A DNA stretch of 64,000 nt from Vairimorpha necatrix (lineage: Eukaryota): contig CP142729.1 in NCBI GenBank assembly GCA_036630325.1, forward strand, positions 372,001-436,000, given 5' to 3'. The position numbers and the translations under genes were made by a program. Shown in pieces: positions 7,934 to 34,515 of this stretch. The notes beneath the pieces are model-generated. The model was not told the DNA's origin. It saw only the letters and a program-made list of their open reading frames with translations, and made no database searches. Each line of letters opens with the position of its first letter. The stretch's first letter is position 1.

Positions 7934-9005
7934 GGCTAAAATCAGCTTTAGTGTAAAAAAACTGGGGGGATCAAAATTTTTAAAAAATTGCCCCTTTTTT
8001 TTAAAAAACGAAGGGAAGAGAAAACTTCAGAAAAAAAAATAAAATATAATTAAGATATAAAAATGCATGAAAATTAACTTTAAAATAAATAAAATATATC
8101 AAAACATAATTTTAATAATGCTTTGAAGATGTCTTCGCTCTCATTTCTTTTAATCATATATAGAACTAAATATATTTCAGCAAATTCATAAGTCCTACAC
8201 CTATTAGATATAGAGGCTTTTAAAGACCCACAATTCCCTTCTATGGTGTTTGTATGCACACCTGTCTCCCTGTCTCTAAAAGTTTGACTGTGATTCACAG
8301 TCCTATGGTCCGCGTAATGGCTTTTTAACGTTATATAGGCCTTCCACACATCGGAATGAATGATAGATTTCAAATTTACATGCTTAAATAAGATCGGCAG
8401 CAATGTATCCTTGTTTTTTTTATTTATTATGACAAACATTATCTTCTTTTTTGTTGTTCTTTCTACCATCCCAAAACACCAAAATCCTTTAACTAATTTT
8501 CCCCTGTGGTATTTATTCTTACCTATTTTACTTTCGTCGATCTCCACTATGATATTTTCGCCTCCTATTTGTTTTGTTTTATTAATATATTTTTCATAAA
8601 TTTTTAATTTATTTAATTTCTCAAGTGTAGCACTTACATTTTGCATATTACAGTCCAAAATTTTAGAAATATGCGCTATTTTAAGTCCCATTGTCCATAG
8701 ATTTACAATTTTCAGCATAAGAATATGATCTATCTTAATATTTGAAAATAGAGTATTATTCCAAATTGAAAATCTTTGGCCGCATTTGGGAAATTTACAT
8801 CTCAAATAAAATGTTTCGTTAGATACTCTAGATGTATCCCAGCCACAAATTGAACATTTCTGTTTATATTTCTTTCTTAGCAGATGTTCATAAAAATCTT
8901 CAATTTCTTCTTTACTTAGCATTCCCTTCGTTTTTTAAAAAAAGGGGCAATTTTTTAAAAATTTTGACCCCCCCCATTTTTTTTACACTAAAGCTGATTT
9001 TAGCC
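7934..9005 (-). mobile_element. Merlin (IS1595/ISXO2-like) DNA transposon, 1072 bp, apparently intact
   Basis: ~84-bp TIRs starting GGCTAAAATCAGCTTTAGTGT (7934-8017 and 8922-9005). Perfect 8-bp TSD GGATTTAG (7926-7933 and 9006-9013). Confidence 0.95.
8080..8922 (-). CDS. Merlin/ISXO2-like DDE transposase, 280 aa
   Basis: N-terminal CSIC..CKFPKC zinc ribbon, IGGENIIVEIDESK, WCFGMVER, HSDVWKAY, VNHS, HTNTIEG. Confidence 0.93.
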   Translation of the reverse strand: MLSKEEIEDFYEHLLRKKYKQKCSICGWDTSRVSNETFYLRCKFPKCGQRFSIWNNTLFSNIKIDHILMLKIVNLWTMGLKIAHISKILDCNMQNVSATLEKLNKLKIYEKYINKTKQIGGENIIVEIDESKIGKNKYHRGKLVKGFWCFGMVERTTKKKIMFVIINKKNKDTLLPILFKHVNLKSIIHSDVWKAYITLKSHYADHRTVNHSQTFRDRETGVHTNTIEGNCGSLKASISNRCRTYEFAEIYLVLYMIKRNESEDIFKALLKLCFDIFYLF

Positions 9006-10222: not shown

Positions 10223-12535
10223 TTAAATCTTATTTTTTATAGCTTTTATCAAATCATATTGTATTTTATTTAAAAATTCTAATAAAACAAATATTAAATC
10301 TTTTTCGCTTATCAGTAATTGAAGTCTAAGCAACTTTTTTTGGCATAAAGGTTTAATGTTCGTTGGATTTTTCCTCTCATTCTCAGACAATATTTCTAAT
10401 ATCTCCATATATTCTCTATTTATATATATTCTTATTGATTCTTTTATTTTACGACATAAATATTTATAGAATCCTTTTAAATCATCATTTTTATCCTTTT
10501 TCAAAGGTTTAATATTTTCAATAGATATTTTTTCTAAAATCCCTTGAGCCAAAATAGAATATATGAATAATTTTTCGATCTTATTTATTTCCACATTTTG
10601 TAACCCATCATTGTCTTTGATCATTACGTCCTGATTATCAAAAATAGTTTCAATTCCCATATATAAAGCTTTATCTTTCATATAACTTGCTGCAAATATA
10701 AATATATCATGATTTATGTTGTCAAGAATAATTTTTATATCATATTTGAAATCAATTATATCATTCTTGGTCAAAGTAGAATCACTCATTTTTTGTTTAA
10801 TGTTGTTAATTATAGGTTCTAACAAAGCCAAAACGTATTTTTTGGAATTTTTATGCAATCTTTCGCTTAAAAATACACTTATTATTTTACTATTATTTAT
10901 TACTTCATTACTATTTAATCCTAAATTAAAAATAACATCATCTTTGTTAACGAATAACATATCTTCTAGATTATAACAAACGTTAGATTTGTTTTCTGCA
11001 AACAATGATGTCATTTTGATCAATTCCCCAGAAACAATTCTTTTATATTTTTCAATCCTGTTAAGACCATAAACTGTTATTCCTGACATTATTTTTGTTA
11101 AATCTATATTATTTTCTTTATAGAACATCTTAGGATTCATCGTAATCTTTAACCCCATTAAAAATTTTTTTTTGTTCATTTGGCTTCCTATTATTTTTAA
11201 AGTTCCAAATATACTGTCACATTTAAATTTATTTTCGTTTATAAACTTTTCGGCTTCTAATAATAAGCAAAATTTAATTAAATATTCTGCTGATAAGTTT
11301 TTTTGATATGTTTTTTCTATTACTATATTTATAAGCTCAGTTTTTCTAGTATCGCCTAATTCATCGCTCTCAATTATTTTTTTAAATTCGGCTTTATTTA
11401 TTATTTGCATATTCAACAAAAGATGTGCAAAAATTATACACAATGCTGTGTCTGTTTTATTTAATAGTCTTTCTAGAAGAAATTTTACTTTATCTTCAGT
11501 TTTCATTAACCTATAAAACATTTCAACACATAAATTATTTTCATATTTATTTTTCATTGTAGAAGAAAGTTTTTTAAAAAAATATTTAAACTCTGATAAA
11601 CATTTCTTGCTGATAATAATTCCATCGTTGAGATTAACAGAATTTGTCTCCAAAAAATATTTGTTCGAATCATAATCTTGTGTGAATTTTATCTTATCTT
11701 TATTTATCTCGATTTTAAATTTACTATCTAATATAATTTCTGTAAAACTGCAAGCTTCCATTTTAGGTTGAACGTAGTTTTGTAAATCATCAATATAAAC
11801 GTTCTTATATAATTCACAATAATATTTACTGATTTTTAAGTCAAAGTCATTGTCATATATCGTTGTTATTTCATGACTTAACGGGAATTTTTCTATATTA
11901 ATTTCTTTTATATCAATTTCAAATATATGATACATATCATATAAACATATAGAAAAAATTATAAATCGTGATTTGTTACGTTTTACGCATACCAAATTAA
12001 TATGTTGAAAATTTCGATCACCATAAGATATATTATTTTTTAAATTGAATAAAATATTTTCAATTAATATATTTTCTTCAATAATTTGTTCATAAACTAT
12101 ATCGTGTTTCACTCTAATTCCTTTTCTCAAAGTTTTCAAATGACTAATTATTTTACTATATAAAGGATGATAAATAGCTTGTAGTGGATTGTATATTATT
12201 ATTAAAGATTGCATATATATTTTTTCGTAATTTTCTAAAATTTTTTTTTCTAATTCTTCGATAATAGTCGTAGTAGATTTTTTAAAACAATTAACTTTCA
12301 GTTTTTTTATTAAATTTTCTTTCGGAAAAAAATTACGAGATAAAATTTCAAGATCCGAAATTAGCTCATTACTATCAGTATTAAACCATAATCTAAATAT
12401 TGTGCAAACGTTTTTATCAATTAAGTAATAGTCGTTGTTTTTTACTTTGTTTTTTATTACAGTATTAAGATTATTATATATCTTATAAAATCCTTGTATA
12501 AATTGGATAAGATTTAATACTTTAACAATTTTCAT
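10223..12535 (-). CDS. Orphan predicted secreted protein, ~770 aa, family L770 member 1
   Basis: Long ORF. The first ATG at 12535 is preceded by CCCCAA and gives MKIVKVLNLIQFIQG. Clear paralog of 32209-34515 and distant paralog of 52426-54732. Confidence 0.88.
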   Translation of the reverse strand: MKIVKVLNLIQFIQGFYKIYNNLNTVIKNKVKNNDYYLIDKNVCTIFRLWFNTDSNELISDLEILSRNFFPKENLIKKLKVNCFKKSTTTIIEELEKKILENYEKIYMQSLIIIYNPLQAIYHPLYSKIISHLKTLRKGIRVKHDIVYEQIIEENILIENILFNLKNNISYGDRNFQHINLVCVKRNKSRFIIFSICLYDMYHIFEIDIKEINIEKFPLSHEITTIYDNDFDLKISKYYCELYKNVYIDDLQNYVQPKMEACSFTEIILDSKFKIEINKDKIKFTQDYDSNKYFLETNSVNLNDGIIISKKCLSEFKYFFKKLSSTMKNKYENNLCVEMFYRLMKTEDKVKFLLERLLNKTDTALCIIFAHLLLNMQIINKAEFKKIIESDELGDTRKTELINIVIEKTYQKNLSAEYLIKFCLLLEAEKFINENKFKCDSIFGTLKIIGSQMNKKKFLMGLKITMNPKMFYKENNIDLTKIMSGITVYGLNRIEKYKRIVSGELIKMTSLFAENKSNVCYNLEDMLFVNKDDVIFNLGLNSNEVINNSKIISVFLSERLHKNSKKYVLALLEPIINNIKQKMSDSTLTKNDIIDFKYDIKIILDNINHDIFIFAASYMKDKALYMGIETIFDNQDVMIKDNDGLQNVEINKIEKLFIYSILAQGILEKISIENIKPLKKDKNDDLKGFYKYLCRKIKESIRIYINREYMEILEILSENERKNPTNIKPLCQKKLLRLQLLISEKDLIFVLLEFLNKIQYDLIKAIKNKI

Positions 12536-15013: not shown

Positions 15014-15707
15014 ATAAACTGCATATATGTCGTACTTACAATGTAGTAACGAACATACAAATTCCATTTGTTTGTGTGACTAGTCTTGGCAGGCCGATTG
15101 AGATGCTACATGTCTTTGGACATATTTGACAGAAGTTATTTGTGACATCGGCCCCTGTGATGTAGTAATGTTAATCACAGTAATTTTTCGGAGATTAATT
15201 TTAGGATAAAACATTAAGTATAACAGTGCATTAAAGAATTAAAATTTCAAGAGCTAAAAACGCTACTGTAAGTAACGATAATTTTTAAAAGTTTGTATTT
15301 TGGGACATAGGATTAGAAAGAAGAAGCAAATTTTAAGATGCTAAGATGTTAGTGATCAAAGTATAATTGCAACTATTAGAAAAAAGCTAAATGAAAAATT
15401 TCAAATTTTCTTGAAATTTTTATTGCTACTGAAAGGAATGGAGCATCTATTAGTTTTTTAATATAGCAAACAAAGAAATATACAATAAATAAGATATTTT
15501 AAACATCAAGAGGACTTAAATTAAACAGTAATTCCGATTTCGCAAAGCAGAGCATTACGGATGTAAAAAGTAATGATTAAAATCATGAAGTGAGTATGAA
15601 GATATGGTAAGAAATTAAAGAAAAATGACAAATCTAAATTTAGAAAAATATGTTGAGAAAACACCTTAGGTTTTTAAACGAAGAAAGAAAATTCTGGGGA
15701 TATAAAA

Positions 15708-15756
15708 TGTGATATATTTGTATAATTTCTATTCCCCATTATGATAAATAAAGACA
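15708..15756 (+). repeat. 5' LTR of element B (49 bp)
   Basis: TGTGATATATTTGTATAATTTCTATTCCCCATTATGATAAATAAAGACA. Confidence 0.92.
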
Positions 15757-18500
15757 TGGGGCGATACCGAATCGTCAGTTTACAAGTGTGGACTGTGGTC
15801 TAGAGGCCAAAAAGTTATTAAAAAAAGTTAGAAGAATAATGTATAGGTTGGAGATGGAGGAAATAGAAATCAGTTTGTGGAAGCAGAGAATATTTATGGA
15901 AGGAAGTGAAGAAATAAAAAATTTCATGGTAGAAAGAATTAGTAAAGAGGACGAATATTATAAAATAATTGAGAAATTAGAGGAGGAAATATGTAGAGAA
16001 GAAAGAATTAAAAAAGAAGAAGAAAATAGGAGAGAACTTATGGAGGTCATAGCTGAGAATGTTAGAGAAACTGTGAGAAAAGAAATTCAAGAGAAAGATT
16101 TAGTTTTAAGGAATACAGTACAAGAAATAAGAAATAATAGGAATTGTTTTAATTGTGGTAAATTTGGCCATATGGCTAGGAACTGCTATGTAGGAAGGAA
16201 CAATAATCAGGAAAATAATAAAAAGTTTAATAAGTACTTAAATTTAGACGAAAACCAAAGTTGTAGTAGCAGTAATGATAATAAAGAATATAAACCAAGT
16301 GGAAAGACAAAACGAGTTAAGTTAAAGGAATGTAATAATAGTGATAGACACATAAAGAAAGAATATATGCGAGCAATAAAGAGACGAAAAGAAGATTACT
16401 GAAGAGGGAATTTACGTTGGAAGATCTCAAAGCGGAATATGAAGAAGTTTTTAAACAAGGAAATGAGGTTATAAGTTATTGTACATTAGAGAAGTGTAAG
16501 ATAGATACTCCAGAGGGTAAGAAGATAGTCAGAAAGGGACAGACGATCCCGCAGGCTTTGATCAAACAGACTGAGGAATATATTAATGATTTAGAAAATA
16601 GAAAAATTATAAGAAGATCGTCTTCGGAATGGCGAAACCCAATAAGAGCGATACTTAAACCAAGTGGTGAAGTAAGACTAGTTAGTAATTTTATAGGGTT
16701 GAATGATTTAGTCGAGAAAGACCCGTATGAGCTAACGAATATGAGAGAAATAATAAGAGCTACGCAAGGGTCGATAATATTTACTGTTGTTGATTGCAAA
16801 GAAGTATTTTACCATTTTGAAATCGAAGAAAAAGATAAACATAAGACGGCGTTTGAATTTAATAAAAAAGTTTACGAATGGAATAGTATGGTGATGGGAT
16901 ACAAAAATTCCCCACAGATACTACAGAGAACGATGAATATGATTTTTGAAGATTTGCGAGGAAATGGTGTTGAGGTATACATGGACGATATAGTAATACA
17001 TGCCAACAATAAACGTAAACACGATGAATTAGTAATAGAGGTTTTAGAAAGAATTAAGAGAAATAAAATGAAATTCAATATTGGGAAAATACAGTTTAGA
17101 CAAGCGGAAGTAAAATTATTAGGTGTGACGCTGAATGGAATAGACATGACGGCCGACGAAATAAAGAAAAATGAAGCCTTGGAGTATCCGGATCCAAAAA
17201 CTTTGACGGAATTGAGGAGGTTTCTAGGATTGACTGGATGGTTCAGACCATTTATAAAAGATTATGGCGGGCTGACGTTGAAAATGACAGATAGTTTGAA
17301 GAAAAATGGCAATTCGTGGAAATTTACGGAAGAGATGAAAGAGGAATTTACTAAAATGAAAAATGTGTTAAGAAATATGGGAAGACTAAGATTACCGGAC
17401 TATAATAAGGAGTTCATACTAAGAACAGACGCTAGCAATTTGAGATTGGGTGCGGTGTTACTTCAAAGAATGAGAATGGGGAATGGGTTGCTATACAATG
17501 GGCATCTAAAAAGCTAACTCCTACCGAAATAAGATATGGAATATCAGAAAAGGAAATGCTTGCGATATATTGGGGCATTGATAAATTTAAATACGAGTTA
17601 AGAGGTAGGAAATTCAAGATAGAAACGGATCACAAAGCACTGGTGGAGATGAGAAATAAACCGTTTTTCAATAATAACAGAATAAATCGCTTAATCTAGA
17701 AGATACAGGAATATGATTTTATCGTGGAATATAAAAAACCTGATGAGATGGTGGTAGCAGATGCGTTGAGTCGAATAAATATGGAAGAGGATATTAAAGA
17801 AATGAAAAATAAAGAGCGAACAATCAAGCAAACAGAAGGTAAATGGAAAGCACATGTTTCTTCCGAGAATGGAAAGCAATATTGGCAATTTGACTCAGGA
17901 CGTAAAGTTGAAATACCACCTGAGAATATAAGGAGACAATTAATCCAAGAATATCATGAAAAAGTAGGCCACAGATGCATGACAAGTGTTTATTATGCAA
18001 TGAGAGAAGAATACTATTGGCCAGGAGTAAAGAAAGAAATAACCGATGTTATAAAACAGTGTCAGAAATGTCAGATATATAACAGGAAAAATATGGGTGG
18101 TTGTGAATTTGTAGATACGTCGAGATACTTAGAGAAGGTTGCATTAGATTTGATAGACTTTAGAAATGAGAAGAAATATGTTTTAGTTGCTATCGATTAT
18201 TTTACACGTAGAGTATGGGGAGTAGTTATAAATAACAAGTCAAATAATAATGTTGTTGGATTTTTGAAAAGATTATGTGAGCAAGGGAAGAAACCAGAAG
18301 AAATTATTACAGATAACGGGAAAGAGTTAATTAACGTGGAATTTAGAAAATTTTGTAGAGATCTCGATATAATACACCGACAAGTAAGTATAGAAGCGCA
18401 TAGAAGTAACGGAAGAGTAGAGCGTGTTATAGGAACTTTGAGAGAAAGTATTTTAAAGTCGGATGCGAAAACTTTTGAGGGTAAAGTGTATAAAAGTATC
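15756..18500 (+). pseudogene. gag-RT-RNaseH-integrase pseudogene of element B (5' part)
   Basis: ORF fragments 15788-16402, 16417-17517 and 17724-18500 are colinear with the 1006-aa ORF at 28918-31938 and broken by frameshifts. Confidence 0.88.
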
Positions 18501-18711
18501 TGTTACCGGATATATCAGATCCGCTTGTTATAAGGCTGAAGTGCCTTCCCTAACATTATTGTTTGTTTGTTTGTTTACTGTCATCGCTTGTCATGTAAAC
18601 AAACAAACAAATAAAAGTATTTAAGGAAGACCCCTAAAATACGTATGCCAAATAAACAAGTTACTTCTAAAAGCAAGTCTTTTCCTTCCACCAGCTCCTT
18701 CGCTGGTAACA
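18501..18711 (+). repeat. 5' LTR of element C
   Basis: TGTTACC...GGTAACA terminal inverted ends, direct repeat of 22332-22542. Confidence 0.93.
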
Positions 18712-18749
18712 TTGGCGACAACGGGATTAAAACCAACACACTAGAAGCG

Positions 18750-21700
18750 ATGATGGAAAAACTGGGAGTTACAACTAGCAGAATGTTGTATTTTCAAGGA
18801 GAAATTGGGAAGGATGCCTTGATATGGCTAACCCAATTCAGTTACCTTGAAGGAGAGTGGAAGGATCAGAAGCTGATGAAGTACACGAAGAAGTACTTAA
18901 GAGATTCGGCTCTGCTATGGTACGAGGCTATGATTGAAGATGAGGTAGAAACTTACACAGACTTTAAACAGAGATTCCTTAACAAGTATGGGAAATGAAG
19001 AGCTCAGAGAAGGGAGCAACTCTGTAAAAACGTTCTATAAGAAACTGTATACTGGACCGAAGTCGCAGAACTTAGAAGACTTTGTTTACGAATTGATCAA
19101 GCTAAACAAAAAGGCTAAAATTGACGTTACTGAGATAATTGAAGAATTATCTAGGTACTTCCCACTATCATTAAAAGAAAGAGTGGAGGAAGCCACATCG
19201 TGGAATGATCTATTAAAGGTCTACAGCAACAACATAAAACTAATCGAGACAGTAAGAACAAGAAACGAAAACTCAAAGCAAAAGGAGAGGAGTTCCGAGT
19301 CTGATATGAAAAAGAAAACTAATAACACTAAGAGAAAGTTAGAATGTTACAAGTGTGGTGGAGAGCACCTATTTAGAGACTGCAAACACGAAGGAAAGAA
19401 AGTGTTGTCTATGAATGCAGTCCCGTCGTCCTCGGATAATAACTTTAATATAGTAGAAGGCTTACATCGAGGAGAGAGAGTAAAAATACTGTTTGATTCA
19501 GGAGCGTAAAATTCATTCATTAATCATGATCTTGCCAGAAGAGAAAAGCTCATACCCGTTCATGGAGTGAACCTAAGAGCTGCCTTTGCTAGCACTGAGA
19601 TCAGAAACTCAGTGGAGACTAAAATAAAAATTAATGATGATGACTACAGAACAGCGTTATTTGTAGTGGAAGACCTTGAAGGTGATATAATATTAGGGAG
19701 AGACTTTATGAAGAAACATAATGTTCAAATAGACTATGGAAGTCAGTCAGTTAAAATCGATAATAAAACTATTACGTGCTATAAACTTTTTAATTTAGAA
19801 AAGACACCGTCAAAGTTATCAAAACCTGATCTATCTTCGAATTATAATGTTCATAAATTGATTAATGACTACAAAAGGAAGCTGGAAACCGCAAAAGGAA
19901 AGAAAAAGTTAGTGGAACATAAAATCGAACTGAGTGAACGGAAGGTAATATGCAAGCGAAACTACCCACTGAGCCTCGATAAAAGAAAGTTTATCCAAGA
20001 GGAGGTTGAGAGGTTACTAAAGTCGAACGTGATAGAAGAAAGCACAAGCGTTTGGAATGCCCCAACGGTTGTCGCTCCGAAAAGAAATGGTGAATATAGG
20101 CTATGTATAGACTTTAGAGAGCTTAATGATATTACAGTGAAAGAATTATGTCAGCCACCGCTGATTGAAGAATGCTTAACATATCTAAGCGGTGCAAGAA
20201 TATTCTCTCAACTAGACCTAGAGAAGGGGTACTACCAGATACCAATGGAAGAGACATCTAAGAAGTACACATCGTTTATGACACCTTCAGGCAAATTCTA
20301 ATTTAAGAGAATGCCGTTTGGTCTCACTAATGCTCCAGCTACCTTTCAGAGCCTAATGTACAAGATATTCAGGAAACAGCTAAATAGGACCACAGTCGTT
20401 TATTTAGACGACACATTCGTATACTCAAAGACTATCGAGGAGCATTATGGGCACTTAAAAGAAGTATTAGAAATTCTAGCAGAGAACGGGCTTAAGGTAA
20501 ACTTTGATAAAAGCAACTTCATGACAAAGTGATATCAATATTTTGGGATACAGTATAAAATCCGGAAAGCTCACTCCAGATAAATCTCGTATGGGGCCTT
20601 TAGAAAAAGAATTTGAAATCAAGAATGTAAAACAATTACACTCTATAATCGGACTTCTGGGATTCTATCGGATGTTTATAAACAACTTTAGTAGAAAGGC
20701 GCTAGAAATACATCGAACAATAAACGAAAAGCTTCAAATTACAGAGAAAGTGCGGAATGACGTTGAATCATTGAGGAAAGAACTTATTTCCACGCCATGG
20801 TTGGCACTCCCAGACTTAACGCTGTCGTTTATCATTGAAGCAGATGCATCAGAAGAATGTATAGGAGGTGCTTTGAAACAGGTACAAGACGGAGAAGAAG
20901 TAACGATTCGTTGTGCTAGCCGAAAGCTTAATAAGCATGAAAAGAACTACACGACGCTGGAGAAAGAAGCCTTAGCTATAATATTTTGCGTAAAAACCTT
21001 TAAAATGTATCTGCACGCCGAGGTCCTGATAAGAAGCGACCACAACCCTCTACAGTGGCTGTATAAAGTTAAGAACCCCCAGGGCCTTAATTGCTCGATG
21101 GCTTATGTTCTTAAGCGATTTAAGATTCAAAATAGAATATAAGGAGGGAAAATCTCATACCCTTCCAGACTGCTTGTCAAGGGTTTACGCGTCGAGTATG
21201 GATATCGTAAGTTCCGACACGAAATTAACAAAAGACGATATGATTAGAGAAAATCATCATTACATAGGACACGGAGGTGCGGAGGCCACAATGCTCTTCT
21301 TAAAATCGCAGAACCTAGCTAATGATATCAGCCCTAAAGATATCAGGAGAGTAATAAACGGTTGTCAGACGTGTATAGAGCACAAGAAACCTAGGAAAAA
21401 GTTTGTAACCTTCCCCACAAAACTCGAGTCAGCCTTTAAAATGATTGGAATCGATTGTATAGGGCCTCTACCCAAATGTTCCTCCGGAAAAAGATTTATC
21501 ATCGTAGCAACGGACTACATGACTAAATGGGTAGAAGCCAAGGCGGTAAAACATAAGTCTGCGTTTGAAATAGCAAAATTTATTATTGAGGATATTTTCA
21601 GCCGGCATGGAACGGTAGACGTAATAAGGAGTGACCAAGGGCTAGAGTTCACAAATCAGATTGTTAGGAAGATCTCGGAACTCTTCGGCGCTCGGTTTAG

Positions 21701-22384
21701 ATATTCCAGTCCGTATCACCCCAATCCAATGGACTTGTAGAGAGGACCAATCAAAGCCTGATTGTAAAACTTGCAAAGGCGGTAACAGATTATCAAAATC
21801 AGTGGGATAGAATACTACCACTGATCCTTATGCAGTATAGGCTGTCCCCAATCGGTAAACTAAAGATGTCCCCCTTTGAAATGCTTTATGGGAGGAAAGG
21901 CGCATTGCCTAAGATAATCAAAGAACTTCCAAGTGACTTTGAAATGCTATTTATAGATCCAGCAGAATACCTCAATGAGCGTACTACAGTAACTAATGAG
22001 ATTAGAGAAGTTATATGTGATATTAATAATAGTGAGATTAAGAAGCATAAACGACAGATGAAAGGGAAACTGATTGCTGACGACGTAAAAGAAGGGTCTC
22101 TTGTCTTTATCAAAAACAGGAACATGTCTAGTAAACTAGACAAGAAATATATAGGACCGTATATCGTTTCAAAGAACAAGACTAAAGGCACTTATAAAGT
22201 AAAAAGCCTAGAGAATGGAATAGAACATCTTATAAATCGATGTGACTTCGTAGTGTATGAAAAAGACGAAAAAATGTTAGAAGATACTACCTCTTCCCTG
22301 GAAGTGAAGCCTTGTCTTAAGGAGGGGAGAGTGTTACCGGATATATCAGATCCGCTTGTTATAAGGCTGAAGTGCCTTCTCTAA
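18750..22384 (+). pseudogene. gag-pol pseudogene of element C
   Basis: Gag (YLRDSALLWY), CYKCGGEHLFRDC, protease LFDSGA + DIILGRDF, RT (YRLCIDFRELN, MPFGL, YLDD), RNase H (EADAS), integrase (DCIGP, SDQG, GPY). At least three in-frame stops and three frameshifts. Confidence 0.9.
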
Positions 22385-22542
22385 CATTATTGTTTGTTTG
22401 TTTGTTTACTGTCATCGCTTGTCATGTAAACAAACAAACAAATAAAAGTATTTAAGGAAGACCCCTAAAATACGTATGCCAAATAAACAAGTTACTTCTA
22501 AAAGCAAGTCTTCTCCCACCACCAGCTCCTTCGCTGGTAACA
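22332..22542 (+). repeat. 3' LTR of element C
   Basis: Direct repeat of 18501-18711 after the PPT. Confidence 0.93.
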
Positions 22543-22920
22543 GTATCGATATATATAATCAGAGCTATCATACAGGAATATAATGTACACCAATAGAAGC
22601 GACTGAAGATAAAACTGGAGACGTAATGCTTGAAAATAGCCCTATAGGGAAATATTGTAATAGGTTTGGAAAGGGAAAGATCGAAAAATTTAGTAAAGGT
22701 CAATTGGTAAGAATAGCTAAACGAGAAAATTTGGCAGGTGTTAATAAGTATGAAAAAGGAAGATTTTTGGATACAGGAAAAATTGTTGAAAAGTGTGGAA
22801 AGGACTCTTATATTGTAAAACTTAGTAATGGTAGGCTTGTGAAGAAGAGACATTATGATCTGAAGGGTATGCTTGGGGTAGATGTGAAAATTAGATGAGA
22901 CTAACCGTCTTGAGGGGGGA

Positions 22921-22969
22921 TGTGATATATTTGTATAATTTCTATCCCCCATTATGATAAATAAAGACA
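22921..22969 (+). repeat. 3' LTR of element B (49 bp)
   Basis: Direct repeat of 15708-15756 immediately after GAGGGGGGA and followed by TSD TAAAA. Confidence 0.92.
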
Positions 22970-24590
22970 TAAAATATCAAAAAATTAAGCACAGAAACAA
23001 ATCAAAACATCTAATGGACGACAAATGATTAACGGTTGTTAATTAGTATAACAAAGCATACTTATTTGCATTAAAACGTTAAGGCATTGTCATAATCAAG
23101 ATCAACATATAAAAATTTGAAAGTCCAAGAATGAACACATAAGTTAGTCTCTGTGTTACAAGGCGACTGACTTCTAGGTAGGGCAGTTTTCATATGAGTA
23201 AATTTTTATAAAAAAAATTATAGTGTATTCTTTTATACAAAAAGGAAAAATTAGAAGTATCGATGGAAGTAACAAAAATGAGAGGATTAAAGCAAAATTC
23301 TCCCGTTTCCACCTCGATATATAAGTTAACATATTCTTCTGAACATATTTTAAAAAAATTATAAACTCTTAATAAAATTTTTAACGTGAATAAGTTTATT
23401 AAGTGTATATACAAAAAAAACTTTACAGGCTAAAAGAGACAAAATGGCCTTTTTAACTTCTAAATCAGTTCTAATCTTTGGCTTATCTAAGGAAGGGTCT
23501 TCTGAGTGCCATTGAAAAAACGAGTATTCTCAAATGAATGTGTAATTATTGAAGCGCAAAGCTGCATTTCATATGACGCATTTAACGGCATAAGAGTTAT
23601 TTTATAATAAGGATTGTACGTGAACATATGGGCAGAACACGATTGAATTAATTCATCAAGTATACTTTCTATAGTATAGTATTATAAGTTATAAAAACAG
23701 CATAAATTTTAAAACAGAACATGAGCCTTTAGCAAGAAATTTAATAAAAAATAGAGAAAGAATTTATGTAAATGACATTATATCGTATACTAAAATGAGC
23801 AAAATGAACAGTTATTAAGGGTATTACAAAAATTACTTTAAAACAATGGAAAGTTGATTGCATTTTGTAAAAAATACAGTAAATAGTAAAATAAATTATG
23901 TTTATGTTAAGCATATAAAACATAGCATTATCAATATTTGATAACGCACAAAATATTCTTCTATTATTAACTAATTCAATTGAGGTTAGAAGATTTAAGA
24001 ATATTGTTTGGTTCAAGGATTTTCGAGGGACTACGCTTGAATTAAGGGCAAAATTAACAAATATGTAATAAATAGTACAAAGTATTTGTGATAGAGGAGA
24101 AATATATATATATTTCGAATTTACTTATTTATGGAATTTTAAGCTTTGAAAAAATACATAGTTGTAATTATAATGGAGTGGTAGCTTTTTACTGGGTTTA
24201 TATTGTTGGTCTAGATGAGTGTTGTTACATGTAATGGCCAAAATGATAAGGTATTTATAATAGCTAAAAATACATTGGTACTAAAGTCGATTCAGGATAA
24301 CAAGAAATGTGCGTGTGTTTCAATGCTTAAGAAATCCGAATTGCGAGGTAAAGGATTAGTTTTAAAATGATCACAAGCTTTATATGAGCATAGAAATAAT
24401 CTCGATTTTTGACTATCGTATTAAATGTGTGCTGAGAGTGTAAAGATTAAATATTTTAAGTAAAATATAAGACATTGTTTACTCAATTGAGCCAGGAACG
24501 CCGTGTTTCAAACAATAAATTAAAATTAGAATAAAAAAGAGGGTTAAAATTCGAGATTCAAGATGTAATTGTAAACTTTATAAAATAGAC

Positions 24591-26732: not shown

Positions 26733-28889
26733 GACATTTGAACTATAAATTCCGTAAATAAATAAACCCATGTTTTCTAATAACAGTTTTGCGTACAACA
26801 GTAATAAATATAAATGCCATTTTTTGCGGGCATAAATCTATAATACGTTGAAATGAAAATTTGACTGATTTAAAATGTTAGATTAATAAAATCAATAAAG
26901 AATTTTAACTTTACAATATACAAGTTAAATAATTTAAAAATATCAAAAGAACTTAAAACTTATTTTGTAGTGAATATTTTTTTAAGAGTTTGATATATTG
27001 AAATGAATAAATGTTAAAAAAAGGAATATACCCAGAAGTAGACTTTAGAAATATAAAGTGTTAAAAGCATCATAAATAAAAAATTCTTATTTGGCAAGTA
27101 ATATAGAAATCATGATTCCTCTTAACATTAAATACATTGGTATCTTCTTTTTTAACTTTTGATGTGTAAAATGCTATTTTGAAAAAATATCTTTCAAAAA
27201 AAAACTAGAACTTGCAAACTTATTCTCTAAGAACGTTTATATGTGTTCATATTAACACATATGTCCAATTTCAGATCGAACGTAGCAAAATGCAAAATGT
27301 ATTAAAGGTTTAACACATTTTCGAATGCTATTTTTACATATTTTTGCAAAAAAATTAGTGGGAATATGCATATATTTATATAATATGAAAATTGAATGAT
27401 GTAGTCATTCAAGAATACGTTTTTATTATAATCAATTTTGTTTCTTTCATCTACATAGTCTTAAGGGCACATTTCCTTTTATGTTGGTGAGCGGGAAACT
27501 ATTGTACATTTTCGCTTAATTAACAATGTGTTGAAAAAGAGGAAAATACATATAGAATAGTATTCTTGAGTCTCCAGGGTGTTCAAAGTACCACTAAAGA
27601 TCCGCTCATTGGCATATTATATTTTAGATGGTCATTGCATTTACATGATTCATATTTTTTCTTTTATGATGCTGAAAGACATTAAAAAATTATAAAATCT
27701 AAAACTTGTACTTTTTAATTGAATTGTTGCCATTAATAAAATCGGCAACAACTCAAGGATACATCTTATGATGGTGCACTGATAAAAAAGAGCAATAATT
27801 TAATTGGTCTTATTTATAAACAAAGTAACTAATTTTTAATATAAAATAAGGTAGACGGCGCAGATTTTTTAATGTTGATATGATTATCATTACATGTTTA
27901 TAAATATCTCAATAGTCCATACTATGGTCCAATTGCATGTAAAAAAAAATATATGCCATACGTAATCCTTTTGTAGCTTTGTTTTACACAATATTATCGC
28001 ATATAGCATAAAATTTGCAATAATGTATCTGCAAATATAATTTCGAGACTTTCCAGTTACAGGATAAAAGCGAGTTTAAATTCTATTATATACAATGAGT
28101 AAATTACGAACAAATAACGTAAAACATTCTTTTTCAGACGAGGGGGCATTTCTACACAATCATATATGGGCTGTAGTCACTATTAAAGAAATATGATAGC
28201 TTTGTTGAAACATAAATTTTGCATTTCATTACAAATCTTTTTATTCTTTGCGAAAACCAGATATAAAGGCAGAAAATACTTATTTGCATCATTTTAGATT
28301 ATAATTAATCTATTTTGCAATGAAAGTATATTGTATATATATTTATTTTTAATTTTTAAATGGATTTAGAAAAGATGTTTTTTTTTCTAAAGATTGATTA
28401 TTTACGCGAAATAATAAATTTTAAAAGATTATAATATTTTTTTTTGTGAGTAAATTAAGATGACGATTCCAGAGTTACTAGGAAATAGCACATATTTTGT
28501 TAATTTTATGTATAATAAATGTTCGGTTGTACGTATTGCATTTATTTATGTTATTTCACTAACATAACCTATTTAATATTTAAAAAAACAATGTACCTAA
28601 GGCAATGAAGTAAGAGAGGTGCAGACAAAATTTATAAGAAGAATTAGAAGGTCTAGTATTATACTTTGTAATTCGACTTCAAATTTTCTAATATACTCGA
28701 GAAACCTCCGGAAATATATATTTGATTTATATAGTATCCGAGAGCAATAATAAATGCGTAATAAAAATTCAAATAGAAGTTTAAAATATATTAGAAGCCT
28801 TATGGGCTAGTTAAATGGTATATATAGCTCAAAATAATATACCATTATTATTTTTGTTTAACATTATGAGTAACAGGGCCGTTATTACA

Positions 28890-28927
28890 TGTAGGGTTTA
28901 GAACCCTTAATAAATAAATGGTTAACA
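28890..28927 (+). repeat. 5' LTR of element D (38 bp)
   Basis: TGTAGGGTTTAGAACCCTTAATAAATAAATGGTTAACA. Confidence 0.95.
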
Positions 28928-31900
28928 TGGCGAACACAAGGATGAACAGGGAAACAAGAGAGTCCCGTAGTCAAGAGGCTAGAACATTAGAGAAAGAGGC
29001 AATTAGGATAGATAAGAGACTAAAGTTAATATTGAAAGTTGAGAAAGTTGAGTGGAAAGATGTTATGGATTTGGCATCTGCGAACTTGCAGGATTATATT
29101 TTTGAAAATTTTTGTGACGGAAGGAGCAGTTGGGAGGAAATTTATAAAGGCTTACAAAAAGGAGCAGAATTTGAGAGAGAGTCAGAAGAAAGACAAGAAA
29201 TGATTAAAGAGATTATGGATAAAGTGTTGAAAGAGTTTAGGGAAGAAAGAAAAGAAAATCTTAGGATGTATAGGAAAAGAAGAGAAATCAGAGAAACTAC
29301 AAAATGTTTTATATGTAAGAAAGAAGGGCATTACGCTAGAGAATGTCATGAAAGTGTAGCTGGTAGGGAAAAATATAAAATTAAAAAGGAACAAGTTTTA
29401 CAGAAAGAACCAATTATCAACAATGAAGGGAAAAGATGTAAAACAGTAAATAAGTTAGAAAATTTAATTGAAAAGTATCCGGAAGTTTTTAAAGAATCAG
29501 AAGAAAAGATAAAATATCTCACAGGAGAGAAGTGTCCAATAAATACTAAGCAAGGTGAAAAGGTTGTGAAAAGAGGGCAGAATGTGCCATACTACCTTAG
29601 GGTGAAATTTGAGGAGTACTTGAATAAGTTGGAAAATAGAGGGGTTATAAGACGTTCCAAAAGTGAGTGGAGGAGTCCAATAAGAGCACTTGAAAAACCA
29701 AATGGGGACGTAAGATTGGTAAGCAATTTGATGGCGTTAAACGATTTGGTTGACAAGGACCCGTACTCACTACCGTTAATTAAGGATATTATGAGAGCCA
29801 CACAGGGGTCAAAAGTATTTACGGTTATCGACTTAAAAGAAGGGTTTTATCATATTGAGATTGAGGAGCACCATAAGCACAAAACAGCATTTGAAGTGAA
29901 TGGTCGAGTATACGAATGGAATAGTATGGTTATGGGGTTTAAGAATTCGCCTCATATAATGCAGAGAGTAATGAACAGAGTTTTAGATGAATTCAGAGGT
30001 AAAGGCGTGGAAGTATATATGGATGATATAGTTATTCATGGTAAAGACGTAAGAGTGCATGACGAGTTACTAGAGAAGGTAATTAAAAAGTTTAAAGAGT
30101 GTGGGTTGAGAATAAACCAAACAAAGATACAATACAAAAAAGATGAGGTGATGTTGCTGGGAGTAACAATTAATGGGGAGGTCATGGGACCGAATGAGAT
30201 TAAAAAGCAGGAGACATTGGAATATAGAAAACCTGAGAATGTTAGAGAGTTAAGAAGATTTTTAGGACTAACTGGTTGGTTTAGAGACTTTATTCCCAAC
30301 TATGCGTATAGAACAGTAAGGCTTACTGAGGCTTTAAAGAAAGATGTTAAGTGGAATTGGACGGAGGATATGGAAAGAGCTTTTGAGGATATGAAGCAAG
30401 GCTTGAGAGATATGAAAAAGTTGAAGATTCCGGACGGAAAAAAGCTATTTAGAGTAAGAACTGATGCGTGTGATACGGGGATCGGAGCAATTCTATTACA
30501 AGAAAATAAAGAGGGTGAGTGGATTCCGATACAATGGGCATCGAAAATGTTGACTCCTACCGAGCGAAGATATACGATAAGTGAGAAGGAGATGTTGGCG
30601 GTGTTTTTTGGAATAAAGAAGTTTGAAAGTGATTTGAGAGGAAGGAAATTTCATTTGATGACGGATCATAAAGCATTAGCAGAGATCAGAAATAAGCCAT
30701 ACTTCAATAATAACAGAATAAACAGATGGGTAGAACAGATACAAGAGTTTGACTTTACAATAGAATATGTGAAAGGGGAGTTGATGACAGATGCAGATGC
30801 GTTAAGCAGGCAGTATGATCAGGTAGAAGTTTCGTATGAACAAAAAGAAAAGGACAACAAGAGAAAAGAAGTGATCGAAAAACAAATTTTGGGAAAAAAG
30901 CAGAAACATATTAAAGAAAAGGACGGTAAACAGTATTGGGAATTTTCCACAGGTGAGGTGAAAGAGATATTGAGCCTAGATAGTAGAGAACATGAAATAA
31001 CAAGAGTACATGAGGAGTTAAACCATAGAGGTGTCAAAGGCACTTATTATAACATTAAACAAAGATGGTATTGGCCTGGTATGAAAGATCATATTAATAA
31101 GGTAATTAAGAATTGTGAAATATGTGGGATTAACAATAGGAAAAACACAGGAGGATGTGATTTCGTAGTAACTAGAAAGAAATTGGAGAAAGTGGCGTTG
31201 GATTTAATGGACATAGGTGGAGAGAATAGGTATGTGTTACTGGGTATTGATTACTTTACTAGAAGGTTGTGGGGTTCGAATTTGAGATGTAAAGAGAGTA
31301 GTGAAGTTATAGAGGTATTACAAAAGTGGATAAGGGAAGATGGATTTCCAGAGGAATATGTGACAGACAACGGAAAAGAGTTTGTAAGTAATAGATTTAA
31401 AGAATGGTGTAGTATTAATGATATTAAACATAGGAAAGTGGGTTTAGAAGCTCATAGGAGTAATGGTAGAATCGAGAGATGCATCAGAACTATAAGAGAG
31501 ACATTGATAAAGCAAAATGATGGGAATATTTCTGAAAAGATAGAAAGAGCAATCAAAGGATATAATAATACACTACATACAGCAATAAAATGTACGCCGA
31601 TGGAAGCGTGGAGAGATCAAACTGCTGAAGTTATAATTGAAAATGATGAAAATGGAAAATATGCTGGTCGGTTCAAGAGAAGACACAGAGAGACATTTAC
31701 AGTAGGCCAAGAGGTAAGAATCGCTAGGAGAGAAAATTTAGGTACACGTGCGAAAACAGACAAGGGAAGATTCACGGGTCGCGGAAGGATCGTAGCTATA
31801 AGTGAAAATGATTCATATATTGTGAGACTACTGGATGGTAAAATTGTTAAAAAGAGGCATTATGATTTGAAAGAGATAAGGAAGAGTTGTTTAGAAGATG

Positions 31901-31938
31901 GAGAGACTACCCGTCTGGAGGGGGGATGTAGGGTTTAG
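28918..31938 (+). CDS. Single polyprotein: vestigial Gag + CCHC knuckle + RT + RNase H + integrase (no protease), 1006 aa (or 1003 aa from ATG 28927)
   Basis: CFICKKEGHYAREC, IDLKEGFYH, MVMGFKNSP, VYMDD, VRTDACDTGIGAIL, SEKEML, TDHKAL, HEELNH..CEIC, LDL, TDNGKEF, NGRIER. No D[ST]G protease motif between the knuckle and RT. Confidence 0.95.
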   Translation: MVNMANTRMNRETRESRSQEARTLEKEAIRIDKRLKLILKVEKVEWKDVMDLASANLQDYIFENFCDGRSSWEEIYKGLQKGAEFERESEERQEMIKEIMDKVLKEFREERKENLRMYRKRREIRETTKCFICKKEGHYARECHESVAGREKYKIKKEQVLQKEPIINNEGKRCKTVNKLENLIEKYPEVFKESEEKIKYLTGEKCPINTKQGEKVVKRGQNVPYYLRVKFEEYLNKLENRGVIRRSKSEWRSPIRALEKPNGDVRLVSNLMALNDLVDKDPYSLPLIKDIMRATQGSKVFTVIDLKEGFYHIEIEEHHKHKTAFEVNGRVYEWNSMVMGFKNSPHIMQRVMNRVLDEFRGKGVEVYMDDIVIHGKDVRVHDELLEKVIKKFKECGLRINQTKIQYKKDEVMLLGVTINGEVMGPNEIKKQETLEYRKPENVRELRRFLGLTGWFRDFIPNYAYRTVRLTEALKKDVKWNWTEDMERAFEDMKQGLRDMKKLKIPDGKKLFRVRTDACDTGIGAILLQENKEGEWIPIQWASKMLTPTERRYTISEKEMLAVFFGIKKFESDLRGRKFHLMTDHKALAEIRNKPYFNNNRINRWVEQIQEFDFTIEYVKGELMTDADALSRQYDQVEVSYEQKEKDNKRKEVIEKQILGKKQKHIKEKDGKQYWEFSTGEVKEILSLDSREHEITRVHEELNHRGVKGTYYNIKQRWYWPGMKDHINKVIKNCEICGINNRKNTGGCDFVVTRKKLEKVALDLMDIGGENRYVLLGIDYFTRRLWGSNLRCKESSEVIEVLQKWIREDGFPEEYVTDNGKEFVSNRFKEWCSINDIKHRKVGLEAHRSNGRIERCIRTIRETLIKQNDGNISEKIERAIKGYNNTLHTAIKCTPMEAWRDQTAEVIIENDENGKYAGRFKRRHRETFTVGQEVRIARRENLGTRAKTDKGRFTGRGRIVAISENDSYIVRLLDGKIVKKRHYDLKEIRKSCLEDGETTRLEGGCRV

Positions 31939-31964
31939 AACCCTTAATAAATAAATGGTTAACA
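31927..31964 (+). repeat. 3' LTR of element D (38 bp)
   Basis: Identical to 28890-28927 and contains the ORF stop codon. Confidence 0.95.
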
Positions 31965-32208
31965 TTACATTTAAATTGTAATAAATAAGGTATTTTATGT
32001 ATTTATTATTAATACTCACAAGTACGGGAAGAATTCAAATACTGAACACAAAAACAATTAAATATTTAATTATATCAATTTTAGCTCTGACGTGTTATTA
32101 AAAATACATAAATATACAATTAAGCCATAAAGCCGAACTTCATCATGCGATGTATATTTTATGCATCAAATACATATGAATGGATTGCCAATTAATAAAT
32201 TTATTTGT

Positions 32209-34515
32209 TTAAACTTGTTCTTGACATTGCAATGAATTTATAAAATCATCATGTAATTTAGCATTTAAAACTTTAGGTAAAATAATATTTAAGTCATTTT
32301 CGTTCATAATTAGATGAAATATATGTAAAGTTTGTTGACAAAAAAGTTTGATACTTGATTGATTTTTTAACTCACATTCAAATAACATTAGGAAGTTTTT
32401 TGAATACTTTCTTTTAATACTGGTCTCTAAATCTTCATGTAATTTATCATGCAATTCTTTAAAGAAATTTTTTATGTCATCCTTTTTATTATTTTGTAAA
32501 AATCCAAAATCTTCAAGATACATTCTTTGTGTTATCTCTTCCGTTATGAGGTAATTTATGAAAAAAAAAGTTATTTCTTGTATTTCATCATTAAATTCAT
32601 AGCTGATGTTCTCAGAATATAATGTATTTCGAATTTTAATACATTTAGCATCTTTTTTTATTTTTTTTAAGGCTAAAATAAATGTCATTTTTCTAAAAGT
32701 TTCTAAAATATTTTTTATGCCATATTTAAAATCCTGTATATCACTTTTGTCAAATGTACTTGTACACATTTTTTGTCGAAAGTTCTTTATTGTAGGTTCT
32801 AAACATTTAAAAAAATATTTTTGTGCATCTAAGTGCAATTTTTCTGAAAGCGCTGTGTATATTATCTCGTTATTATTTGTTACTTTATCACTATTTAAAC
32901 CTAAAATAGTAATAATATCATATTTCATAAAATAAGTTATGTCGCCTAAATTGTTGCATCTATTTGCTATATTTTCAGTGAATAATGATATTATTTTGAT
33001 CAATTCCCCAGAAACAATTCTTTTATATTTTTCAATCCTGTTAAGACCATAAACTGCTATTCCTGACATTATTTTTGTTAAATCTATATTATTTTCTCTA
33101 TAGAGCTTCTTAGAATTCATCGTAATCTTTAACCCCCTTAAAATTTTTTTTTTGTTCATTTGGCTTCCTATTATTTTTAAAGTTCCAAATATACTGTCAC
33201 ATTTAAATTTATTTTCGTTTATAAACTTTTCGGCTTCTAATAATAAGCAAAATTTAATTAAATATTCTGCTGATAAATTTTTTTGATATGTTTTTTCTAT
33301 TACTATATTTATAAGCTCGGTTTTTCTAGTATCGCCTAATTCATCGCTCTCAATTATTTTTTTAAATTCGGCTTTATTTATTATTTGCATATTCAACAAA
33401 AGATGTGCAAAAATCATACTTAATGCTGTGTCTGTTTTATTTAATAGTCTTTCTAGAAGAAATTTTACCTTATCTTCAGTTTTTATTAACCTATAAAACA
33501 TTTCAACACATAAATTATTTTCATATTTATTTTTCATTGTAGAAGAAAGTTTTTTAAAAAAATATTTAAACTCTGATAAACATTTCTTGCTGATAATAAT
33601 TCCATCGTTGAGATTAACAGAATTTGTCTCCAAAAAATATTTGTTCGAATCATAATCTTGTGTGAATTTTACCTTATCTTTATTTATCTCGATTTTAAAT
33701 TTATTATCTAATAATGATTCTGTAAAACTGCAAACTTCCATTTTAGGTTGGGTGTAGTTTTGTAAATCATCAATATAAACGTTCTTATATAATTCACAAT
33801 AATAATTACTAATTTTTATGTCAAAGTCATTGTCATGTATCGTTGTTATTTCATGATTTAAAGGAAATTTTTCTATAATAATTTCTTTTATATCAATTTC
33901 AAATATATGATACATATCATGTGAACTTATGGAAAAAATTATACTTCGTGTTTTATTGTGTTTAGTACATGCTATACAGAGATTAGGAATTATACAATGG
34001 ATTTCCATCTTTAATGTCGAAACAATTCTGGCTAATAGTTCATTTTCATCGATAATGTGTTCATAAACTATGTCGTGTTTCACTTTAAATTCTTTTCTCA
34101 AAGTTTTAAAATATTTTAAATGATTAATTATTCTACTATATATAGGATGCTTACGGGCTTGTTTTTGATTATAAATTATTATTAAAGATTGCATATATTT
34201 TTTTTCGTATTTTTCTTTACATTTTTTTTCTAATTCTTCGACAATAGCTGTAGTAGATTTTTTATTACAGTTAATTTTCAGTGTTCTTATTAGATTTTCT
34301 TCCGTAAAAAAATTATGAAATATAATTTCTAAGTCTAAATTAAGCTCGCACTTATCAAAATCAAACCTTAAATTAAATGCCATAACACCTCTTTGATCGA
34401 TCGTAAAAAAATCATTATTCTGTATTTTATTCATTATTATAACATTAAGATTATCATAAATTTTTTGAAATCCATGTAAAAAAAGAATTGTTAAAAATAT
34501 TTTCAGCATTTTCAT
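32209..34515 (-). CDS. Orphan predicted secreted protein, ~768 aa, family L770 member 2
   Basis: The first ATG at 34515 is preceded by CCCTTA and gives MKMLKIFLTILFLHG. Paralog of 10223-12535. Confidence 0.88.
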   Translation of the reverse strand: MKMLKIFLTILFLHGFQKIYDNLNVIIMNKIQNNDFFTIDQRGVMAFNLRFDFDKCELNLDLEIIFHNFFTEENLIRTLKINCNKKSTTAIVEELEKKCKEKYEKKYMQSLIIIYNQKQARKHPIYSRIINHLKYFKTLRKEFKVKHDIVYEHIIDENELLARIVSTLKMEIHCIIPNLCIACTKHNKTRSIIFSISSHDMYHIFEIDIKEIIIEKFPLNHEITTIHDNDFDIKISNYYCELYKNVYIDDLQNYTQPKMEVCSFTESLLDNKFKIEINKDKVKFTQDYDSNKYFLETNSVNLNDGIIISKKCLSEFKYFFKKLSSTMKNKYENNLCVEMFYRLIKTEDKVKFLLERLLNKTDTALSMIFAHLLLNMQIINKAEFKKIIESDELGDTRKTELINIVIEKTYQKNLSAEYLIKFCLLLEAEKFINENKFKCDSIFGTLKIIGSQMNKKKILRGLKITMNSKKLYRENNIDLTKIMSGIAVYGLNRIEKYKRIVSGELIKIISLFTENIANRCNNLGDITYFMKYDIITILGLNSDKVTNNNEIIYTALSEKLHLDAQKYFFKCLEPTIKNFRQKMCTSTFDKSDIQDFKYGIKNILETFRKMTFILALKKIKKDAKCIKIRNTLYSENISYEFNDEIQEITFFFINYLITEEITQRMYLEDFGFLQNNKKDDIKNFFKELHDKLHEDLETSIKRKYSKNFLMLFECELKNQSSIKLFCQQTLHIFHLIMNENDLNIILPKVLNAKLHDDFINSLQCQEQV

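Follow-up and report, generated by a model that had tools for sequence, protein, structure and literature searches.

How short can the long terminal repeats (LTRs) of a retrotransposon become while the element still encodes reverse transcriptase, RNase H and integrase? The question is raised by an element in a stretch of 64,000 nucleotides from Vairimorpha necatrix (assembly GCA_036630325.1, contig CP142729.1, positions 372,001 to 436,000 of the forward strand), the whole of which is referred to here as the window. The element occupies positions 28890–31964 of the window, 3,075 bp in all, between outer direct repeats of 38 bp each. With high confidence, it is regarded here as a recently active and apparently complete Ty3/gypsy LTR retrotransposon, member of a microsporidia-specific clade with LTRs of 38–67 bp and with no protease in its single polyprotein. 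The features that carry this reading can be seen directly in the DNA, namely the anatomy of the element, its intact reverse transcriptase (RT), RNase H and integrase motifs, a near-identical second copy, and the presence of such mini-LTRs throughout the family.

The 5′ LTR (28890–28927, plus strand; TGTAGGGTTTAGAACCCTTAATAAATAAATGGTTAACA) runs from TGT to ACA, and the 3′ LTR (31927–31964, plus strand) has the same letters. TTACA precedes the first (28885–28889) and follows the second (31965–31969), forming a perfect 5-bp target site duplication (TSD); a repeat finder returns a repeat of 40 nt and not of 38, because one base beyond each side matches by chance. Directly 3′ of the 5′ LTR lies TGGCGAACAC, with the primer binding site (PBS)-like sequence TGGCGAACACAAGG at 28928–28941 (plus strand) adjoining the LTR, and directly 5′ of the 3′ LTR lies a G-rich polypurine tract (PPT), GGAGGGGGGA, ending at 31926. 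The latter closes a 24-nt block, GAGACTACCCGTCTGGAGGGGGGA (31903–31926, plus strand), in which a small AGAC/GTCT inverted repeat precedes the G-rich tract. A single open reading frame (ORF) of 1,006 aa (28918–31938, plus strand) takes up 3,021 of the 3,075 bp (98.2%): it starts with an ATG at LTR position 29 (28918) and stops with a TAG at positions 10–12 of the 3′ LTR (31936–31938), so that the PBS and the PPT, with the whole 24-nt block in this copy, are coding, and the internal region is left without any non-coding base. A second in-frame ATG spans the LTR/PBS border, formed by the last LTR base and the TG of the PBS. Within the LTR, on the plus strand, follow each other TAG at positions 10–12, CCC at 15–17, AATAAATAAA with overlapping AATAAA at 20–29, and the in-frame ATG at 29–31. 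The first-pass annotation of this locus, made from the letters alone, had described the identical 38-bp TG...CA repeats, the perfect TSD, a PBS-like TGGCG after the 5′ repeat, a G-rich PPT before the 3′ repeat and one ORF covering about 98% of the element from LTR to LTR, and each of these is found where it had placed it. The element thus has both the termini expected in Ty3/gypsy, TG..CA direct repeats with a TSD of 4–6 bp, and the PPT. As a separate observation, positions 28894–28906 and 31931–31943 of the two LTRs read GGGTT-TAG-AACCC, an inverted repeat whose arms of 5 bp enclose the stop codon as a loop. The closest relative (L068, see below) retains only GGG...CCC; this may be due to chance, or be tied to GGG-like/CCC-like start signals.

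The polyprotein carries, in this order, a short Gag-like N-terminus, a CCHC zinc knuckle, RT, RNase H and integrase. Pfam searches place the CCHC knuckle at aa 129–144 (29302–29349, plus strand), where a scan restricted to the N-terminal 260 aa scores it with 20.8 bits, right at the cut-off; RT at aa 259–418 (29692–30171, plus strand; RVT_1, E 2.1e-31), with YMDD at 367–370; RNase H at aa 481–611 (30358–30750, plus strand; RT_RNaseH, E 2.5e-30, and RT_RNaseH_2, E 9.6e-28); and, within 30985–31434 (plus strand), the H2C2 zinc domain (aa 690–741, E 2.6e-14) and the DDE core rve (aa 766–839, E 3e-10) of the integrase. In an alignment of 30 family members, the element and 29 relatives, the RT residues D369/D370, the RNase H residues D516/E558/D583, the H2C2 residues and the integrase residues D762/D817/E853 are invariant. 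The profile of this alignment, compared with the PDB, has the Ty3 Gag-Pol 7q5b as its top match (E 2.6e-117), and its positions 224–654 align to Ty3 residues 586–1012, leaving 223 residues ahead of RT in the element versus 585 in Ty3. The Pol region therefore corresponds to that of Ty3/gypsy, both in the order RT, RNase H, integrase and in having RT and RNase H nearest to Ty3-type enzymes.

A second copy (61308–64000, minus strand), truncated where the window ends, is 99.6% identical to the first. Its 3′ LTR (61308–61345) is identical and of 38 bp, and its body differs by nine substitutions and one frame-shifting 1-bp deletion. The contigs of four DNA sequencing runs from different studies were compared with positions 28400–32500, and the element is present in independent runs, with 0.86 (X1) and 0.80 (X2) of the sampled words. 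None of the 19 runs listed for the element is recorded as RNA. In X1 the word depth is ~60–65 over the element and ~3 on its flanks, a value that counts contig words and gives no copy number, and that hints at many copies. Regarding the boundaries, one X1 contig (record 3) with an unrelated 5′ flank starts matching exactly at 28890, and X2 has a loose end at 28889. Together with the near-identical second copy and the word depth, these boundaries speak for recent activity. The letters by which the two copies differ at 30077, 30765, 30807, 30835 and 31443 also occur in the contigs of these runs; therefore, both variants exist outside this assembly. That the 38-bp repeats are a chance match or an assembly artefact can be practically dismissed. 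Nothing speaks for it, no match appeared in 100 shuffles of the window that preserved its dinucleotides, even with up to 3 mismatches allowed, the element is present in X1 and X2, and the structure recurs in unrelated assemblies.

The window holds an element of a second mini-LTR family at 15708–22969 (plus strand), with 56% aa identity to the 28890–31964 element. Its LTRs, of 49 bp (15708–15756 and 22921–22969), differ by 1 mismatch and are flanked by the TSD TAAAA (15703–15707 and 22970–22974); TGG follows the 5′ LTR and GAGGGGGGA precedes the 3′ LTR. The ORF of this second element is decayed and interrupted by a nested Ty3/gypsy element of classical type (18501–22542, plus strand; 4,042 bp). 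The nested element shares with the mini-LTR element the host group and the superfamily, a TSD of 5 bp (GTATC) and a PBS that starts with TGGCGA; it differs in its LTRs of 211 bp, in its size of ~4.0 kb, in carrying a protease motif (LFDSGA), in frames disrupted by stops, and in its position outside the mini-LTR clade.

Beyond the window, a protein search gave 124 matches, of which the first 55 show 38–74% identity and at least 424 bits, the next one reaching only 306 bits at 28% identity. A scan of viral contigs gave no relative. Named members of the family come from Nosema granulosis, Vairimorpha necatrix and Vairimorpha apis. Twenty-nine of the 55 family proteins are on contigs of 2,991–3,288 nt, approximately the size of a whole element, which fits short LTRs without proving them. 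Both LTRs could be delimited in six elements, two from the window and four from public contigs (loci are cited by their L numbers), and measure 38, 39, 49, 58, 66 and 67 bp. The four public ones are L003 (51% aa identity, 39 bp, TSD TTATA), L070 (36%, 58 bp), L005 (36%, 66 bp) and L069 (38%, 67 bp). Single LTRs were delimited on contigs with one end, in L068 (38 bp), L004 (49 bp), L001/L002 (49 bp) and L072 (~47 bp), where the length was set by the PPT or the PBS side together with the likeness to relatives and is less certain than in the six pairs; no flanking repeat pair was found on L001, L002, L004, L068 or L072, because these contigs carry one end only. L068, with 67% aa identity, is the closest relative found, and it shares with the present element the 38 bp that is the shortest LTR among the members seen. 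L070 retains an intact ORF of 1,088 aa, which begins with the border ATG and has its stop codon at position 16 of the 3′ LTR; therefore, the LTR-to-LTR design of the ORF recurs in a distant member. The terminal signals are likewise kept: TGG directly follows the LTR in all eight 5′ LTRs of the window and the public contigs, and also in a published Anncaliia algerae consensus discussed below, a G-rich tract directly precedes the LTR in 8/8 aligned 3′ ends, and the GAGACTACCCGTCTGGAGGGGGGA block is kept at the DNA level in five of these eight, the three basal ones having a variant of it.

L068 and L070 come from one metagenome-assembled genome (MAG) labelled Clostridium sp., L071–L073 from a MAG labelled Turicibacter sp., and L069 from a MAG labelled Erysipelotrichales; the top protein match, P0001, is named as a Clostridium protein. 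These bacterial MAGs are species representatives, yet they include contigs with microsporidian retrotransposons, which looks like eukaryotic contamination of low-GC bins. In L001 (1–60) and L002 (~1040–1105), a mini-LTR 5′ end (LTR plus TGGCACCC) stands inverted directly against a truncated copy of another, an arrangement that suggests nested or head-to-head insertions in that organism.

A tree was computed from 62 rows, 13 cut from the window or locus DNA, 37 family proteins of at least 850 aa and 12 other Ty3/gypsy rows. All 50 family rows fall in one clade (SH-aLRT 97), and the outgroup side includes, from the window, the classical element of the nested insertion together with a further gypsy remnant, a decayed RT/RNase H stretch at 5330–7079 (plus strand) with 24–27% identity to the mini-LTR polyprotein. 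The forms with LTRs of 58, 66 and 67 bp branch first, and those with 38–49 bp lie inside. The clade can be described by a size of ~3.1–3.9 kb, LTRs of at most 67 bp with TGT..CCC..ACA, a border ATG and a single ORF of ~1,000 aa without protease, and the 28890–31964 element has all of these. The first-pass annotation had proposed that the short repeats are the LTRs of an extremely reduced enzyme-coding element, a proposal now extended to a family with LTRs of 38–67 bp and intact catalytic motifs, and had looked to longer LTRs in other copies as the sign of a deletion derivative; no member with long LTRs was found, the second copy having 38 bp and all 10 LTRs delimited in the clade at most 67 bp. 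That the element derives by deletion from one with ordinary LTRs of at least 100 bp is accordingly very improbable: nothing in its favour was found, and the elements with 211-bp LTRs that exist in the same genome are in another clade, whereas the second copy and L068 both have 38-bp LTRs and the A. algerae relative is listed with 50 bp (PMC4202319). The data support mini-LTRs as a stable trait of the lineage and not the result of a deletion.

The second peculiarity of the family concerns the region ahead of RT. No Pfam protease family was detected in aa 1–260 with E up to 10, and no retropepsin is among the 60 listed PDB matches of aa 1–235 (E up to 10), which consist of nucleocapsid zinc knuckles and chance helical proteins only. 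In 27 of the 30 family members there is no D[ST]G upstream of RT, and in the other three it occurs at non-homologous places; the CCHC knuckle is present in 26 of the 30. The ~125 aa ahead of the knuckle matched no capsid family in Pfam and PDB profile searches. In the ESM Atlas, residues 1–230 reached a best score of 0.84, below the threshold of 0.9, with generic gag/protease clusters, and this result was not used as evidence. A protease between Gag and RT is usual in Ty3/gypsy, yet it is not defining in the RT-based classification. The aspartic protease expected at that place was not detected in the element, and, judged by the homology of its RT, RNase H and integrase, the element is placed as an apparently protease-less lineage inside the Ty3/gypsy superfamily and not as a typical member, because no protease was detected in it or in its family. 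The polyprotein would then act uncleaved, or be cut by a protease from elsewhere.

The latter option leads to a different explanation, according to which the element, having its own RT, RNase H and integrase, is non-autonomous and takes the protease, and perhaps the capsid, from classical Ty3/gypsy elements, its small size being that of a parasite of other elements. The absence of a detectable protease in any of the 30 family members, the coexistence in the window of classical elements with the LFDSGA motif, and a Gag-like part of only ~125 aa before the zinc knuckle are in agreement with this. Nevertheless, the family is old and diverse, with 55 proteins at 38–74% identity in at least Nosema and Vairimorpha and the same architecture in Anncaliia, and long intact ORFs of ~1,000 aa have been retained, which therefore points to selection on its own coding capacity; moreover, the classical copy in the window is itself broken by stop codons, and no tested result ties the mini-LTR kind to the classical kind. 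Dependence on classical elements is thus considered rather unlikely.

If these are the LTRs of an element of this kind, the signals that an LTR has to provide must be sought in 38 bp. When eight 3′ LTRs of the family are aligned, the sole columns conserved in all are the TGT start, the ACA end and a central CCC. This CCC lies 16–21 nt from the LTR end in 9/9 LTRs, the published A. algerae one included, and the segment ahead of it has a variable length of 14–43 nt; therefore, the shrinkage was in the U3-proximal part. In most family members an ATG follows the CCC inside the LTR. Host genes of the window have a similar arrangement, as a T-run plus CCC ending 2–4 nt before the ATG was found in 4/5 non-transposon ORFs of at least 200 aa. 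In other microsporidia, passages of published work describe a CCC motif within 15 bp of most start codons of Nosema ceranae (Cornman 2009, PMC2685015), and, for Encephalitozoon cuniculi, 5′ UTRs shorter than 7 nt by RACE, a CCC directly ahead of the start, AAUAAA signals close to stop codons, poly(A) at 16–68 nt past the stop for most genes tested, and frequent transcription overrun (Peyretaillade 2009, PMC2803860).

These data suggest that a tiny microsporidian promoter and an AAUAAA signal may have let U3-R-U5 shrink. The CCC of the 5′ LTR and its A/T-rich stretch would act as a minimal microsporidian core promoter, with transcription starting in the 11–21 nt that lie between CCC and the end of the LTR, at positions 18 to 28. 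This short sequence would, in the 3′ LTR, give the stop codon and AAUAAA, and cleavage and polyadenylation would take place at or just past position 38. The predicted regions are thus a U3 of ~17 nt, an R of ~10–20 nt and an almost absent U5; the shortest R regions of retroviruses are of the order of 10–20 nt. The 3′ end of a tRNA would prime at the TGG adjoining the LTR, the short strong-stop DNA would be transferred via R, the AGAC..GTCT plus G-run block would prime the plus strand, and integrase would join the TGT/ACA ends, making the 5-bp duplication. As a general explanation, it is proposed tentatively, at somewhat less than an even chance, that the clade compressed promoter, R, poly(A) signal, stop, start and integrase ends into 38–67 bp by using the CCC signal of its host, and discarded the protease.

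Conversely, the LTR may contain no promoter at all, the element being transcribed by read-through from the flanking DNA and the 38 bp serving only as integrase ends and as homology for the transfer. Transcription overrun and multi-gene and run-on transcripts are documented for microsporidia in passages of two studies (PMC2803860, PMC2685015), and a U3 of at most 17 bases is very little for a promoter. The CCC, though, is invariant in its position 16–21 nt from the end of all nine LTRs while the rest of the LTR varies, an ATG follows it within the LTR in most members, and an RNA starting upstream would carry both entire LTRs, which would need a different transfer scheme. Read-through is hence judged improbable, and a minimal promoter inside the LTR is retained as the working explanation.

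Several observations weigh against the interpretation as a whole, or against parts of it. The first-pass annotation had expected 5-bp TSDs at other loci as well, and this holds in part: the TSD matches in three of the six elements with both LTRs, and in L005, L069 and L070 the flanks do not match. These three are contigs from short-read metagenomes or MAGs, and chimeric flanks from different copies may explain the mismatch. An empty site was not recovered, and no contig bridged the element locus in the four DNA runs. The tree is a quick maximum-likelihood search under a single-matrix model (LG+G4), with SH-aLRT as its only support, and it is rooted on long-branched outgroups, so the shrinkage of LTRs over time is suggested by it and nothing stronger. 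Concerning the signals, 11 nt separate the CCC from the first ATG in the element, compared with 2–4 nt in the host genes of the window, and other subfamilies have CCC and AATAAA in the opposite order, so that a single division into U3, R and U5 may not hold for every subfamily. The search for the priming tRNA gave no match either: the single tRNA of the window, a tRNA-Met (1570–1644, minus strand; anticodon CAT, first pair U1-A72), has a 3′ end that matches none of the PBS sequences seen, and no tRNA was present on the loci of 14 relatives. An acceptor-stem pattern built from the PBS of L070 gave only one match, palindromic and not a tRNA, in one of three MAGs, and no complement of the PBS region that could serve Tf1-like self-priming was seen in the LTR by inspection. 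Finally, how a Gag-Pol matures without a protease is a question that the element itself raises.

The closest system described is not from Vairimorpha. In Supplementary Table S1 of Parisot 2014 (PMC4202319), the A. algerae element 'Aalg retro L' is listed with an LTR of 50 bp, an ORF at 32–3049 and a total of 3,127 bp, alongside 'retro S' (LTR 45 bp, 3,806 bp in total, a different Gag by its printed start), 'CK' (73 bp) and 'BU' (90 bp); the remaining complete elements have LTRs of 105–272 bp. Compared by eye from the consensus printed in Supplementary File S1, Aalg retro L starts and ends with a 49-bp repeat (listed as 50), which begins with TGTTAT and contains AAATAAATACCC and at once an ATG; its ORF is annotated from position 32, which lies within the LTR and immediately behind the CCC. 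The LTR end GTTAACA followed by TGGCG is exactly that of the 28890–31964 element, ahead of the 3′ LTR stands the same block of GAGACTA.CCGTCT and G-run, and a single polyprotein carries a CCHC knuckle. The differences are the genus, the LTR length of 49–50 bp versus 38 bp, and the end of the ORF, which stops before the 3′ block in A. algerae and enters the 3′ LTR in the present element; as the block comes after the stop codon in the A. algerae consensus, it is therefore conserved as a cis signal and not as protein. Table S2 of the same work gives values of 19–45 for this element in what are presumed to be copy-number columns, for three strains. On the printed sequence, Aalg retro L is plainly an element of the same kind, and it can be taken as the type of the mini-LTR clade.

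The element is therefore not entirely undescribed: its kind was already in that supplement, and the 28890–31964 element is a new member of it and not a new class. The main-text passages of Parisot 2014 make no mention of LTR length. According to passages of the same paper, the Ty3/gypsy elements of microsporidia fall into three groups that are specific to microsporidia and encode one polyprotein; its main text does not contain the word 'protease' (PMC4202319). For the elements Nbr1–8 of Nosema bombycis, a passage of a later summary states that 'nearly all' encode Gag, protease, RT, RNase H and integrase (PMC2474625), wording that may leave room for one Nbr family without protease. No paper discussing LTRs shorter than 100 bp on coding elements was found in the open-access literature searched, and nothing on LTR length was found in Pan 2013 or in a 2024 review of Nosema. 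As far as these searches reach within that literature, the recognition of the clade, the loss of the protease and the link between LTR size and a minimal promoter are not in print.

Among elements outside microsporidia, the best solved relative of the RT-RNase H-integrase region is Ty3 of Saccharomyces cerevisiae, represented by 7q5b, 4ol8 and 6r22 in the PDB (E 2.6e-117 and 9.2e-100). It has the same domain order and differs in the 585 residues before RT, made up of capsid, nucleocapsid and protease, that correspond to 223 in the present element. Tf2-named fungal proteins, of the Tf1/Tf2 type of Schizosaccharomyces pombe, are among the distant matches, at 27–29% identity. Ty3 has a 5-bp duplication, TG..CA ends and a tRNA-type PBS, together with LTRs of ~340 bp, separate overlapping GAG3 and POL3 frames and a protease; Tf1/Tf2 have one ORF from Gag through integrase, a protease, LTRs of ~350 bp and self-priming.

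The surroundings of the element include other features. An ORF of 280 aa at 8080–8922 (minus strand) contains a DDE_Tnp_IS1595 domain (E 5.9e-16), a transposase type tabulated as Merlin in microsporidia by Parisot 2014 (PMC4202319). Three paralogous ORFs of 770–791 aa, all on the minus strand and without a Pfam family, lie at 10223–12535, 32209–34515 and 52426–54801; the first two are 64% identical to each other and 28–30% to the third, and a T-run plus CCC precedes the ATG in the first two and not in the third. They are a lineage-specific gene family with no assigned function. The stop of the 32209–34515 ORF and the 28890–31964 element are 245 bp apart, the element being on the downstream side.

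LTR finders have a default minimum of 100 bp for the LTR. Annotation based on them will overlook mini-LTR elements or label them simply as genes for 'reverse transcriptase' or 'endonuclease', as the names of the V. necatrix relatives suggest. Since the kind was already in a published supplement, the gain lies in recognizing and explaining a family and not in finding a new class. If the interpretation is true, these would be the shortest working LTRs on record for enzyme-encoding elements, missed by standard finders across microsporidian genomes. The element would illustrate the degree of reduction that an LTR seems able to bear without loss of function, as judged from its sequence, and offers a natural system in which the smallest possible U3, R and U5 could be tested. 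In this way, the size of the control region of a mobile element would be tied to the promoter economy of its host, as microsporidia need only ~20 nt before the ATG.

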